From assembly GCA_950072105.1 (NCBI GenBank), contig CATMOE010000068.1:1-17227 (forward strand): DNA of 17,227 bases. The letters are read 5' to 3'. Made by a program: the position numbers and the translations under genes. Under the pieces are notes generated by a model. The model ran no database searches and had not been told where the DNA came from. It saw only the letters and a program-made list of their open reading frames with translations. The DNA is from an uncultured Dehalococcoidia bacterium (lineage in GTDB: Bacteria > Chloroflexota > Dehalococcoidia > Lucifugimonadales > UBA3495). Positions 1-12,063 of the stretch are shown here, piece after piece (position 1 is the stretch's first letter; every line of letters begins with the position of its first letter).

Positions 1-324
1 ATGGCAGTGGACGACGACTTTACGTCCGGTATGTCCCAGCTCCCTTTGGATCGTGTCGGAGACCAGGTCCACCGTCTCTCGTTGACGTTCTACGTCTTCG
101 ACGTAAGGGTCTATGGGTATGCAAGCGTGCGCGTCATTGATGATCTCCTCGGCCACGTTGATGACGAAGCAACCTTCCTGGAGTAGGGCTTCCTCCGCCC
201 CACCCACGGATGTGATGGCTACGTCGCTGGTGACCCAGCTTATCGTGTCTACATCAAAATCTGCGGGTATCGGATAGTAGCGGGATATCTCTTTGAGTTG
301 CTCTTGTCTTTCTATGTTGTTCAT
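1..324 (-). CDS. Dual-specificity/protein-tyrosine phosphatase-like protein, 3' end runs off the window (missing from the ORF track)
   Basis: Translated by hand: GAGGTG RBS, then ATG at 324, open to position 1: MNNIERQEQLKEISRYYPIPADFDVDTISWVTSDVAITSVGGAEEALLQEGCFVINVAEEIINDAHACIPIDPYVEDVERQRETVDLVSDTIQRELGHTGRKVVVHCH... The VINVAEE and GRKVVVHC segments match the DSP fold leading into the HCx5R P-loop. The Arg of the motif lies outside the window. Confidence 0.75.
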   Translation of the reverse strand, partial: MNNIERQEQLKEISRYYPIPADFDVDTISWVTSDVAITSVGGAEEALLQEGCFVINVAEEIINDAHACIPIDPYVEDVERQRETVDLVSDTIQRELGHTGRKVVVHCH

Positions 325-424
325 ATATATTCACCTCGTTATGATCGCCCACAGGTGCCGATCGGCGGCTGTGGGTTGTTTGGTCTGTCCTGGGATCGTT
401 GATGGGCTATCTGCCGGCCAGGAG

Positions 425-829
425 CTACTCCAAGCCGCCGGCCTCGCGCCAGGCAAGGAGCGCTTCCCGGTCCCTCTCCCGTACTTCCCTTTCCCGTCTG
501 GCGCTCTCCTCGGCCTCTTTCTTCTCGCGCTCCATGCGAGCCCGGTATTCCGCCTGTATGGCGTCTTTCCGTTTCGTGGACAACCAGTCGCACTGCACCA
601 GCTCCTCCACCATGGCCTCGTATTCCGTGGGGTAGGAAGTGAGCAGGCTTCCGTACGACACGTGGGAGGCCCAACGGGGTTGAACACCGCAGACCAACTT
701 ATGCTCCAGATCAGTCAAGCCGGATATGCGCCCACGCTCGCTCCATGAGGTGTTCTTGATCAGTTCCCTGAGGAAATCCGTCTTCACCCCACGGATGTCG
801 TCCGCCTCGATCTCTACTCCATATGCCAT
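425..829 (-). CDS. Hypothetical protein (134 aa) with a charged coiled-coil C-terminus
   Basis: Strong RBS AAAGGAGG upstream of ATG at 829 (MAYGVEIEADD...); E/R/K-rich helical tail; co-oriented with its neighbours. Confidence 0.75.
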   Translation of the reverse strand: MAYGVEIEADDIRGVKTDFLRELIKNTSWSERGRISGLTDLEHKLVCGVQPRWASHVSYGSLLTSYPTEYEAMVEELVQCDWLSTKRKDAIQAEYRARMEREKKEAEESARREREVRERDREALLAWREAGGLE

Positions 830-942
830 ATCACCCTCCTTTATCATCTGACCGGGTTATCCCTCCGCCGGACCACATCAACACCACACCGGCATCCCCC
901 GGTCTTCCGGATGTCTTAAGCTTGGGCCGCGGTCCGGAGCTA

Positions 943-1248
943 TCACCCCGGGTCTCCGCCGATGGTCCCGGACCGGGCCGGGCAAGAACCGGGGGACAGC
1001 CGTTCGTCTCGTTGCCCATCCTTCTGGCAGAGGAAGCAACTGAATATGTCTGGCTCCCTGATGCCGGGGTCAACCAGTACTATTACTGCATCTTTCAGTT
1101 CTTGCCTATGGATGGACTGGGCCAGGGCTTCGATATGCTCATGGCATGTAGGCATGCTTCTCGTCTCTGGCTGCTCGTGCGCCTCTCTCAAGAGTTTGGT
1201 GTAGGGGGTTTCGCCAGGATGTAGCCTCGTAAGCACTCTTCCTCTCAT
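943..1248 (-). CDS. Small hypothetical protein (101 aa), possible Zn-binding (CxxH...CxxC)
   Basis: ATGA start/stop overlap with the upstream ORF; contains TCHEH and SCFLC motifs. Confidence 0.5.
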   Translation of the reverse strand: MRGRVLTRLHPGETPYTKLLREAHEQPETRSMPTCHEHIEALAQSIHRQELKDAVIVLVDPGIREPDIFSCFLCQKDGQRDERLSPGSCPARSGTIGGDPG

Positions 1249-1436
1249 CCTTTCACCGCCCTGGCTACCTTGAGCGACTTGTTGGTGTTGATGACGGCCC
1301 GGGCCTCAGCTCCGCCGTCGTGGTCGTTGACCGTACGTTTCCTGCCGGGCTCACCGTCACCGACCCGTGGCGTTGGCGGCACCCTGTTTATGGGGCCGGT
1401 CTTGCCGGCCCTGGTCTCTACCGTGTATCCCATCAC
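1245..1436 (-). CDS. Small hypothetical protein (about 63 aa)
   Basis: GTGA/TGATG overlap with the upstream stop, with GGAGG just upstream; its own stop overlaps the next ATG. Confidence 0.45.
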   Translation of the reverse strand: MMGYTVETRAGKTGPINRVPPTPRVGDGEPGRKRTVNDHDGGAEARAVINTNKSLKVARAVKG

Positions 1437-1588
1437 TTCCTCCTTCGCTTGGATGATCTTAACTCTGCCTTTTCTACGTGCCGGCGCACCTCCGCCTCGG
1501 ACGCTTCCCGTATGTGGGTAGCCCCGATCCCGAAGTGGCCGTACCGGGACCTGAATCTCTTTTGGGACCGTCTATCAGCCCTGTACAT
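1433..1588 (-). CDS. Small basic hypothetical protein (51 aa), first ORF after the riboswitch
   Basis: AGGAGGT RBS before ATG at 1588; MYRADRRSQKRFRSRYGHFGIGATHIREASEAEVRRHVEKAELRSSKRRRK. Confidence 0.55.
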   Translation of the reverse strand: MYRADRRSQKRFRSRYGHFGIGATHIREASEAEVRRHVEKAELRSSKRRRK

Positions 1589-1666
1589 GTCATTACCTCC
1601 TGTGTCTCGCTTCGTTGATGTTGTCCGGTCGCCCTCCCGCCGGCGTCCTGGAGACAACACCTGGCG

Positions 1667-1709
1667 AAAAAGGAAAAGCCCCGCGCCGTCTCGATACGGA
1701 CGCGGGGCT
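1667..1709 (-). terminator. Intrinsic terminator forming the riboswitch expression platform
   Basis: Minus-strand RNA AGCCCCGCG-U-CCGU-AUCGAG-ACGG-CGCGGGGCU followed by UUUCCUUUUU. Confidence 0.9.
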
Positions 1710-1724
1710 GTAGGTCAGCTCGGC

Positions 1725-1836
1725 GTCCTTTCGTTGCCTATGCAACGCCCATCGTTCCCTTTCGGGCTGGGTCCACCTTTAGGACAAGGTTGGCGTGCGG
1801 TCAAAGGGCCAGGTCCCTCGCGCACCTCGGGATGGC
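1725..1836 (-). promoter_or_regulatory. SAM-clan riboswitch aptamer (SAM-I core plus P5/PK-2)
   Basis: RNA: CCAUC CCGAG GUGCG CGA GGG ACCUGG CCC UUUGAC CGCAC GCCAACCUU GUCCUA AAGGUGG AC CCAG CCC GAAA GGG AAC GAUGG G CGUUGC AUAG GCAACG AA AGGAC. Elements: P1 CCAUC/GAUGG, AUCnnGAG motif, kink-turn GA/GA, PK-1 CUGG/CCAG, P3 CAACC/GGUG, P4 with a GAAA loop, P5, and PK-2 GUCCU/AGGAC. Confidence 0.9.
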
Positions 1837-1911
1837 TTGTGTTTTGTAGGCTATCTGCGGTCTATGGCTGCTCCGAAACCAGTAGAGTAACTAACGAAAC
1901 CACTACATATC

Positions 1912-1940
1912 ATTATACATAACGGATCATGTTCTGTCAA
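1912..1940 (-). promoter_or_regulatory. Consensus sigma70/sigmaA promoter
   Basis: Minus strand TTGACA (1940-1935), 17-nt spacer, TATAAT (1917-1912). Predicted start near 1905, about 70 nt upstream of the aptamer. Confidence 0.85.
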
Positions 1941-2081
1941 CTTATGGATGGATTACGACACAGTATTCGCTGGTTTTCGTCAGCCAGTGAGATGTATGCG
2001 ATCAGGATGGCGGGGGAGCTAGCCGGGTAGGGCCTCATCGGGCCGCGGCTGGCCTGTGTCAACTCTCGACACTCAAGCTTA

Positions 2082-2226
2082 TTACCTTCTAACATCAGAT
2101 CAGAGAGGGCGATCGGCACGTGTATCTTTGTCTAAAGCCTTAGCGAGTTGGCCTAGGGTTTGGAAAAGGCTACGGAGGATTTCCGCCACGGCGGATAAGC
2201 TAAGAGTTCAACTCCCTTCATTCTCC
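2082..2226 (+). repeat. Repeat family 1, copy A (tRNA-3'-like end, CCGCCACGGCGG hairpin, antisense peptide frame)
   Basis: Ungapped alignment of 2082-2215 with 3730-3863; core also shared with 11820-11913. Confidence 0.85.
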
Positions 2227-2294
2227 GCTGAGTTCCCTCCCAATCCCAGGTCCATCCGCAGTACGTACATCCGCTATAATCCCCGGCAACAGTC

Positions 2295-2711
2295 ATGTTC
2301 CAACGAATCGGCAGATACGAAAACTTCGAGCGGATAGCTGCTGATGGACAGGGTACGGTATACCGTGCCCGGGACACCGTGCTGGACCGTGTCGTCGCCG
2401 TCAAGGTCATCAACCAGCCGGTCACTGACGACCCCCAGTACCTAGAGGCCCTCCAAAGGGAGGCCAGACTCGCCTCCAGCCTCGACCACCCAAATGTCAC
2501 CCGTGTCCATGACTTCCAGGTGGAGGGTGACACTGCCTGCATCACCATGGAGTACGTCCCCGACTCCCTGGACAAACATATCCGTGCGGGACAGCCTCTG
2601 TCGTATCAGCGAGCCGTCCAGATAGCATGTACAGGGGGACGTCCAGCCGGTGCCGCCGTAGATGTTCGAGACGGTAGACAAGTGCACGTTCTTAGTTCGT
2701 CAACAGGCTGA
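2295..2711 (+). pseudogene. Truncated Hanks-type Ser/Thr protein kinase (N-lobe only)
   Basis: IGRY..., GQGTVYRARD..LDRVVAVK, REA..ASSLDHPNV, ITMEYV are present. Homology stops near 2625, before HRD and DFG. The Gly-rich loop is degenerate. Confidence 0.85.
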
Positions 2712-2783
2712 CTCAAAATGATAATAATATAGAGGCTAATTTTCGCACCGCTTCTTGAGGCGAACGAGATAAACAGGAGCAAC

Positions 2784-3581
2784 ATGTACGCTGACGCCAA
2801 CGGAATCCGGGTTCACTATCAGGTCGAAGGCCGAGAAGGCGCCCCATGGGTGACCTTTGTTACAGGTATCGCGAATGACACGACCATGTGGGACGGCCAA
2901 GTGCCGGTGCTGCAAGATGATTTTCGAATCCTGAGAATCGACTCCCGAGGCCACGGTGGCACGCAAGCAACCGAGGGAGATTACACCTTTGATATTCTGA
3001 TTGGTGACGTACTTGGCTTGTGGGATACGCTTGAAATTCGTCGGTCACATTTGGTTGGGCTTGGGCTTGGCGGCTCTACCTCACTTGGTCTGGCGATCGA
3101 ACATTCGGACCGACTTCTGAGCCTGGTGCCATGCGCCTGCCGTGCGGTCATGGTTACGGAGTTGGCGTCCATATGGCCGGAATTGGTCGAACAGGTAAAG
3201 GCCGGTGGAATGGAAGCGATCGCCGAAACCACGGTGCAACGGTGGTTCACCGAAGAATTCAAGGCCGCCAATCCAGATGTGTTGGACTCAGTACGGGCTC
3301 AGATCCTAGGCACCAACCCCCTTGGGTACTTCGGATGTGTCGCTGCGTTCTTGAAGTTGGATTTTGGGAACCTAATCGAGCGGATCAGTGTTCCGACGCT
3401 TTTCATAAGCGGAGCAGACGATCAGCGAGGCGGGCCACCGACAGTTATGCAAGACTTGGTTGGTATGGTGCCAGGCGCCCGGCACGTATCCGTACCTAAT
3501 GCTGCGCATATCTGCAACATCCAAAACCCCGATGGGTTCAACGAAGTGCTTGGGACCTTCCTAAGGCAACCGGTCGGGTAG
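2784..3581 (+). CDS. Alpha/beta hydrolase, 3-oxoadipate enol-lactonase (PcaD)-like; nucleophile Ser replaced by Gly
   Basis: MWDGQV, RIDSRGHG, RWFT, GADD and AAHICN motifs; nucleophile elbow reads VGLGLGG; AGGAG RBS. Confidence 0.85.
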   Translation: MYADANGIRVHYQVEGREGAPWVTFVTGIANDTTMWDGQVPVLQDDFRILRIDSRGHGGTQATEGDYTFDILIGDVLGLWDTLEIRRSHLVGLGLGGSTSLGLAIEHSDRLLSLVPCACRAVMVTELASIWPELVEQVKAGGMEAIAETTVQRWFTEEFKAANPDVLDSVRAQILGTNPLGYFGCVAAFLKLDFGNLIERISVPTLFISGADDQRGGPPTVMQDLVGMVPGARHVSVPNAAHICNIQNPDGFNEVLGTFLRQPVG

Positions 3582-3729: not shown

Positions 3730-3863
3730 TTACCGTCAGCCATAATATCAGAGAGAGCGATCGGACCGTGTTTCGGTGTCCAGAGAGTCGGCGAGTTGGC
3801 CTAGAGCTTGGGAAAGGTTACGGAGTGCGTCCGCCACGGCGGATGAGCAAGGAGTTCAACTCC
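3730..3863 (+). repeat. Repeat family 1, copy B
   Basis: GCTTGGGAAAGGTTACGGAGTGCGTCCGCCACGGCGGATGAGCAAGGAGTTCAACTC is nearly identical to copy C. Confidence 0.9.
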
Positions 3864-11819: not shown

Positions 11820-11913
11820 GTCTAGAGCGTTCGAGAGTTGTGCCAGGGCTTGGGAAAGGTTACGGAGTGCATCCGCCACGGCGGATGAGCTAGGAGTTCA
11901 ACTCTCATTCTCC
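11820..11913 (+). repeat. Repeat family 1, copy C
   Basis: Shares the core with copies A and B, and the TCATTCTCC end with copy A. Confidence 0.9.
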
Positions 11914-12063
11914 ACTTCCCCAGTATCATGTTTATCATACTAATTCGACTAGACTCCATGGACATCTGAGGACACAAAGTGCTTCATGGTAGAAATTGGG
12001 AGTGTCCACCGTTAGGTCTTACAATGCTTTCAACTAAACAAGCCGAAATTTTAGGGGGTTGGT

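Follow-up and report, generated by a model that had tools for sequence, protein, structure and literature searches.

What does a SAM-clan riboswitch regulate when none of the sulfur genes usual behind SAM-I RNAs follows it? The question is raised by one end of a 17,227-nucleotide stretch of DNA from an uncultured Dehalococcoidia bacterium (the window, by which we mean the whole stretch), for which a first-pass annotation had claimed a perfect promoter, a riboswitch and a terminator ahead of three coupled tiny ORFs, a 134-residue coiled-coil ORF and a DSP-like phosphatase. This layout was confirmed: a promoter, a SAM-clan RNA, a terminator and five co-oriented minus-strand ORFs are all present (Table 1). 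Judging from the sequence, the leader is probably a SAM-off terminator switch of a hybrid subtype, routed through the pseudoknot PK-2, and acts on accessory genes.

Table 1 Features of the leader and its genes, in transcriptional order; pN/pS was computed against the window sequence from small counts.
Feature	Position	Strand	Details
Promoter	1912..1940	(-)	sigma-70-type, perfect consensus, TTGACA-17-TATAAT, 12/12
SAM-I-like aptamer core	1746..1838	(-)	RF00162 match over all 108 model positions
P1	1835-1831 with 1753-1749	(-)	predicted helix
PK-1	1812-1809 with 1770-1767	(-)	predicted pairing
PK-2 (predicted)	1725..1785	(-)	P3 loop 1785-1781 with 1729-1725; 5 Watson-Crick pairs
P5 hairpin	1732..1747	(-)	immediately 3' of P1; 6 bp, -6.8 kcal/mol, pairing probability 0.99
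Antiterminator (predicted)	1698..1728	(-)	-17.3 kcal/mol, prefix folding; PK-2 3' strand + terminator 5' arm
Intrinsic terminator + U-rich tail	1667..1709	(-)	hairpin 1709-1677, -25.7 kcal/mol, then U-rich run
ORF1	1433..1588	(-)	51 aa, basic; GGAGG site upstream
ORF2	1245..1433	(-)	62 aa; intact in 4/4 strain copies among the matches listed; pN/pS 0.70
ORF3	943..1248	(-)	101 aa, variable N- and C-termini; pN/pS 0.74
ORF4	425..829	(-)	134 aa; unnamed all-helical family, W-x3-GG at end
ORF5	1..324	(-)	dual-specificity phosphatase, residues 1-108 of 164; C-x5-R motif; CxxGMERS signature of its family

The leader and the genes behind it

A metagenome scan with ORF4 recovered at least seven loci, comprising the window's own contig and at least six strain copies at 91-95% nucleotide identity, and the stretch was found mostly in marine metagenomes; gene content suggests a SAR202-type Dehalococcoidia. 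The promoter was the sole perfect one among five promoter-like sites in a consensus scan of positions 1-3000; it is retained in two strain copies (L130 and L133), and the upstream DNA of a third (L132) differs. The claimed riboswitch was recovered as an RF00162 match with 31.5 bits (E = 5.9e-5), a score below the gathering score of 44.4, and no Rfam match within the window passed gathering. The terminator hairpin was seen by folding and was not called by a simple terminator scanner. Among the matches listed, four strain copies varied at 1 of the 54 sites in the region 1723-1670. The whole leader folded no better than its shuffles (z = -0.52). RNA-library contigs from three libraries covered parts of 1-1525, where DNA carry-over is possible, and left 1541-1960 uncovered in all three runs; since such contigs show neither transcript ends nor levels, the uncovered part is neutral as to termination.

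The three tiny ORFs are coupled as claimed, with overlapping stop and start codons from ORF1 through ORF3. Among the matches listed, ORF1 was intact in all four strain copies covering it, with a pN/pS of 0.37 (11 variants; all pN/pS values were computed against the window sequence and rest on small counts), and selection on ORF2 and ORF3 was weak. Neither ORF1 nor ORF2 had a match in Pfam, PHROG or PADLOC, and an overlapping 39-residue frame (1593-1474) was rejected as a gene at pN/pS 2.4. ORF3 sequences formed 47 clusters at 58-96% identity, all from close relatives and including 77-residue forms that reflect the variable C-terminus; a weak match to HTH_20 (E = 0.03) fell under the cut-off.

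ORF4 is where the coiled-coil ORF had been placed, and its predicted structure (pLDDT 95) is all-helical with a long C-terminal helix. The family has 48 library representatives at E <= 0.001, a few of them probably coiled-coil noise. The proposed search for a fold or family identity brought no name, with no assignment in Pfam, PHROG, PADLOC, PDB, BFVD or Atlas and no fold match. Purifying selection was apparent both on ORF4 (pN/pS 0.28) and on the phosphatase (0.20).

ORF5 runs off contig C68 at position 1 and is full length in three strain copies (L128, L129 and L131). Residues 1-108 had no Pfam match alone, and the full L128 protein matched PF00782 at 48.2 bits against a cut-off of 33.5, which together with the C-x5-R motif bears out the phosphatase assignment. 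In a 37-row alignment (A1), the Cys, Gly, Arg and Ser were invariant and a candidate general-acid Asp before the catalytic motif was unconserved. Relatives at 41-47% identity occurred in five viral contigs and in none of 199 family genomes or 400 class genomes; the nearest placed relatives are viral. The protein has the C-x5-R motif and DSPc domain in common with phage dual-specificity phosphatases (PF00782; PHROG 32716, 10650), and its phage relatives likewise sit among small ORFs, on viral contigs of 23-141 kb; unlike the window, the five viral loci had no SAM-clan match at E <= 1. Gaps of ~100 nt precede both ORF4 and the phosphatase gene and could hide internal promoters; the consensus scan of 1-3000 found none on the minus strand before either gene.

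A SAM-I core with P5 and a predicted PK-2

Besides P1 and PK-1, the aptamer core holds a kink-turn P2, a P3 and a short P4, as seen in sequence motifs and predicted pairings. All six SAM-contact bases of SAM-I (U7, G11, A46, U69, G70 and U103 in the accessible text of PMC12714719, whose numbering we follow) are present, at 1832, 1828, 1791, 1775, 1774 and 1751. Of the base-triple positions given there (24, 73, 74, 76 and 100), only 24 is retained in the cmscan alignment against that numbering: 73-75 are missing and the bases at 76 and 100 are different, leaving J3/4 three bases short and four of the five triple positions lost or changed. J1/2 is unlike that of nearly all controls and variable among strains. 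The window's PK-2 is only 5-6 bp long; when the 62 nt after P1 were shuffled, a hairpin plus five Watson-Crick pairs arose by chance in 0.8% of 2000 shuffles. Across four strain copies among the matches listed, the switch region was variable at 8 of 115 sites versus 12 of 70 in the adjacent UTR, and the switch and terminator platform was less variable than the UTR or the ORFs.

With SAM-I (RF00162), the window RNA has in common the core, the six contact bases, the kink-turn motif, PK-1, P4 and the terminator platform; it differs in the added P5 and PK-2, the short J3/4, a score under the cut-off and a predicted antiterminator that competes with PK-2 instead of P1. The sulfur genes usual downstream of SAM-I are missing behind it, whereas metK lies behind a relative, L433. 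With SAM-IV (RF00634) it has in common PK-1, P5 and a PK-2 that joins the P3 loop with the 3' end; as SAM-IV is described in the available part of PMC6890682, it lacks P4, gains a PK-2 linked to P5 and replaces the kink-turn with a four-nucleotide turn, whereas the window RNA keeps P4 and the kink-turn, both SAM-I features. With SAM-I/IV (RF01725) the common ground is P4, a hairpin 3' of P1 and a comparable A-rich 3' tail; going by those parts of the papers that were accessible, that family is without PK-1 (PMC6890682) and without the P2 internal loop (PMC2864571), both of which the window RNA has. Neither RF00634 nor RF01725 matched anywhere in the genome at E <= 1.

The same portion of PMC6890682 describes each of the three families as missing one peripheral element, and the window RNA is predicted to carry every one. 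Our search of the literature, in the portions accessible, yielded no description of a natural SAM-clan RNA that combines P4 with both pseudoknots; an earlier mention is possible in Trausch et al. 2014 or in the supplements of PMC2864571. An RNA with all elements that switches via PK-2 would allow one to test directly how the outer domains of the clan separate binding from regulation.

From these elements we infer folding, ligand and switching as follows. With SAM bound, the P3 loop would keep the strand after P5 in PK-2, which would block the antiterminator and let the terminator halt transcription; without SAM, the post-P5 strand would pair with the 5' arm of the terminator, permitting read-through into ORF1-3 and probably on to ORF4 and the phosphatase gene. 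PK-2 and the predicted antiterminator would be mutually exclusive because the antiterminator begins with the 3' strand of PK-2. A SAM-off switch of this kind implies that the operon goes up when SAM falls. Because the terminator is predicted to be more stable than the antiterminator, switching would have to be kinetic. Competition between the antiterminator and P1 was rejected, as prefix folding preferred the hairpin that uses the PK-2 strand. The SAM-clan assignment of the first-pass annotation held, and the hybrid architecture and PK-2 switch are additions to it.

By its sequence, the window RNA is the most degenerate copy of the hybrid subtype, and it may bind SAM weakly or not at all. It is conceivable, if rather unlikely, that this copy no longer senses physiological SAM or favours a related molecule, for example SAH, and is a fixed attenuator or a retuned sensor whose relatives are true SAM switches. 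The score below the Rfam cut-off, the short J3/4, the missing triple positions, the odd J1/2 and the strong terminator would all fit such a loss, but the six contact bases and every helix are retained and the region is better conserved among strains than the neighbouring DNA. A C-G flip in P3 was rejected as a sign of an altered ligand, being frequent before ordinary genes.

Recurrence of the hybrid RNA and its gene neighbours

We assessed how common the architecture is using 125 SAM-I loci as controls, of which 101 distinct ones were parsed, 21 failed and 3 dropped out. P5 together with a 5-bp PK-2 occurred in 1 of the 101, and that one (L134, from an Acidobacteriota MAG; 64.7 bits as SAM-I) is a relative with long blocks in common with the window RNA; a near-identical copy (L278) is present in G1086. 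A model built from the window RNA and its relatives (R1) was then searched in class and order genomes, and matched in 7 of 146 genomes of the class and in 47 of 146 of the order of G1085. Most matches were ordinary SAM-I, and three were new hybrids: L430 and L436, both in G459, and L433 in G440. L431 (G360) looked hybrid by eye and failed both parsers, and we regard it as probable and keep it outside the firm count. The hybrid architecture hence recurs in four other genomes, possibly five, and all of these RNAs (L430, L436, L433, L134/L278 and L431) scored above the SAM-I cut-off, at 46.9-64.8 bits. Sub-threshold SAM-I matches in G092, G044 and G129, of the host's order, were rejected as hybrid RNA.

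A second parse took 53 loci, with 42 distinct, 6 failing and 12 lacking a loop. Five contiguous PK-2 pairs were found only in L278, L433 and the window; three pairs plus an interrupted extension were seen in L430 and L436, and the other 25 had at most four. L433 has 8 perfect PK-2 pairs, and its PK-1 letters change in step. The P3 loop and the PK-2 tail strand shift together among the related RNAs: in a 6x6 duplex matrix representing four independent sequence types, every loop preferred its own tail, with one tie, in which the window loop pairs equally well with the L134/L278 tail. Formal covariation in the 7-row alignment was weak, being reached by 28 of 500 shuffles, and PK-2 had no two-sided change. 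The window, L430, L436 and L433 show the same overlap of tail, antiterminator and terminator; no terminator or antiterminator was identified in L134/L278.

RF01725 had no match in 150 family genomes, and the control likewise gave none. Two pattern scans of viral sequences gave nothing, or one chance coding match; one that was too loose gave 119 matches that were not individually checked as RNAs, another gave 4 ordinary-looking SAM-I matches, and of 113 matches in a further scan, 12 passed a crude filter and none was of the hybrid type by eye. Neither the leader nor ORF4 had a match in the viral, phage and plasmid collections.

Inspection of the genes behind homologous switches, a check proposed with the original claims, turned up a second metK, a 455-residue protein with a CpXC gene, and small-ORF operons. 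L433 precedes one of the two metK genes in the complete G440 genome, and this position before a second metK ties the subtype to SAM. BrxA, BrxB and BrxC begin ~4 kb after that metK, in a region where several kilobases are lower in GC. Behind L430 and L436 lie paralogous operons of ORFs without an assigned role, most of them small, on contigs of 3.6 and 4.0 kb; the seventh ORF of the L436 operon belongs to the ORF4 family (E = 2e-37), and the L430 operon has no ORF4. That family occurs in only 2 of 291 class genomes (G000 and G459), behind the hybrid subtype in both, with G459 having come up through the RNA search first and the ORF4 family second. L278 precedes the 455-residue protein, of which a homologue lies in the G440 island, and the CpXC gene.

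First genes behind the subtype vary by lineage (metK, a 316-residue unknown, a 455-residue unknown and ORF1), as would be expected if the leader had been picked up as an orphan from a mobile metK cassette, with passenger genes behind it and incidental SAM control. Such an origin would also fit G440 and G459, which have leader sequence 3' of the terminator in common and not the first gene, and L128, where ORF4 and the phosphatase follow different DNA that includes a second phosphatase paralogue, with no such leader in the available 0.9 kb. We nevertheless consider it unlikely. The leader and ORF1-4 are linked in all four strain loci that reach the leader among the matches listed, including L132 with its replaced upstream DNA; a genome from a different family of the class also has the ORF4 family behind the subtype; and the first gene behind the switch in G1086 is 45% identical to its homologue in the G440 island.

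Accessory DNA and a probable low-SAM response

Operon extent and mobility we likewise infer, from the strain copies and from relatives. The sequence beyond position 1, which the first-pass annotation had proposed to retrieve, came from the strain copies: among the matches listed, three of six strain loci reached the end of the 164-residue phosphatase gene, and the only one running further continued into a YgjP-like metallopeptidase gene. No met or cys gene was found in the window operon or in the six strain loci listed, in agreement with the claim that no sulfur gene lies behind the switch. The host's core mtnA-mtnP operon has its own unrelated canonical SAM-I (73 bits), and metK follows 4.7 kb downstream on that strand. 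A truncated, divergent kinase fragment lies at 2295-2711 of the window, and the genome and metagenomes hold multiple copies of kinase-like sequence.

The cassette lies within a hypervariable island of a marine bacterial population. Its DNA had no match in 59 relatives, save one in G026 that was judged chance. Both congeners and every other relative searched lack the cassette, which supports its accessory status. As for the suggested mobile element, the 15 window ORFs scanned contained neither an integrase nor phage structural or replication genes, on a contig that ends inside the operon. Being accessory DNA in a hypervariable island points away from a sulfur pathway, and the cassette genes most likely form a low-SAM response carried by horizontally moving DNA. 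That the operon instead serves host sulfur or methionine starvation signalling, with the phosphatase countering the lineage's many Ser/Thr kinases, is highly improbable: the neighbouring kinase fragment and the multicopy kinase-like sequence would suit it, but neither congeners nor 199 family genomes carry the cassette, the nearest placed relatives of the phosphatase are viral and the adjoining kinase is truncated.

A low-SAM response on mobile DNA may have a more specific purpose, which we propose tentatively. The hybrid switch might be a SAM-depletion alarm, by which a phage SAM lyase or a heavy methylation load, in draining SAM, would turn on a rescue metK that keeps BREX working, as in G440, or an effector operon in which the ORF4 family and the phosphatase take part in an undescribed defence or counter-defence. 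Such an alarm is plausible, on circumstantial evidence; the earlier suggestion of a link to SAM-dependent defence gained circumstantial support from the related switch that precedes a second metK, with BREX genes downstream of it. Phage T3 uses SAM loss against BREX, according to the available part of a preprint (bioRxiv 10.1101/2023.02.27.530186), and the switch copy on a spare metK beside BREX would let one test readily whether cells detect SAM loss inflicted by phage and counteract it. The window RNA, for its part, would connect SAM status with a phage-type phosphatase and a protein family that has no name. Our literature search found no description of SAM switches on mobile DNA in the accessible parts of its sources. 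In a separate genome (G1101), a SAM-I/IV RNA above the cut-off precedes small ORFs in an element with an integrase and a primase-polymerase.

SAM-clan RNAs ahead of other genes

A SAM-I/IV riboswitch scoring 47.3 bits, above the cut-off, was found in the L286:12060-12180 region (G1101:C75), immediately upstream of two unknown ORFs of 82 and 257 aa. The surrounding element (L286:1275-12018) carries tyrosine integrase and primase-polymerase genes, and the 257-aa protein has an N-terminal SHWDGYP motif that, by eye, is common to it and to the gene after the phosphatase in the viral loci L258 and L259. The IMG/VR contig L324 has a candidate SAM-I/IV-like RNA that appears to have a PK-2; downstream of it come an unknown ORF of 134 aa and a gene resembling those of AAA ATPases. 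In G440:C1 (L440:9890-19000), the hybrid switch is followed by the second metK, unknown and TPR genes, and BrxA-BrxB-BrxC, with a nif cluster divergent from this stretch.

Variation around the leaders and ORF4

In G1086 the hybrid switch leads a 455-aa gene; in G1085 this gene shows an apparent internal deletion and frameshift (L134:355-1164 vs L285:9456-11358), while the switch itself is intact. The G459 (L430, L436) and G440 (L433) leaders have in common a segment 3' of the terminator, which is complementary to the P1 5' strand.

At the strain locus L128 (L128:1-800), the leader and ORF1-3 are replaced upstream of ORF4 by a basic ORF of 47 aa and a second phosphatase paralogue, which as assembled here has Ser at the catalytic Cys position. 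The 278-aa protein P0132 consists of two ORF4-family domains in tandem, which suggests that members of this family may work as dimers.

Window repeat and kinase fragment

No Rfam family matched the repeat at gathering. Window positions 2107 and 3806 are connected in one DNA contig, across two copies of the repeat. The 5' part of the truncated kinase gene occurs in multiple copies, both in the genome and in metagenomes.

Repeat copies and truncated gene in the window
Feature	Position	Strand	Remarks
Non-coding repeat, ~130 nt	2082-2229, 3730-3863, 11820-11916; also C141		copies ~78-80% alike
Ser/Thr kinase gene	2295-2711	+	truncated after ~110 codons
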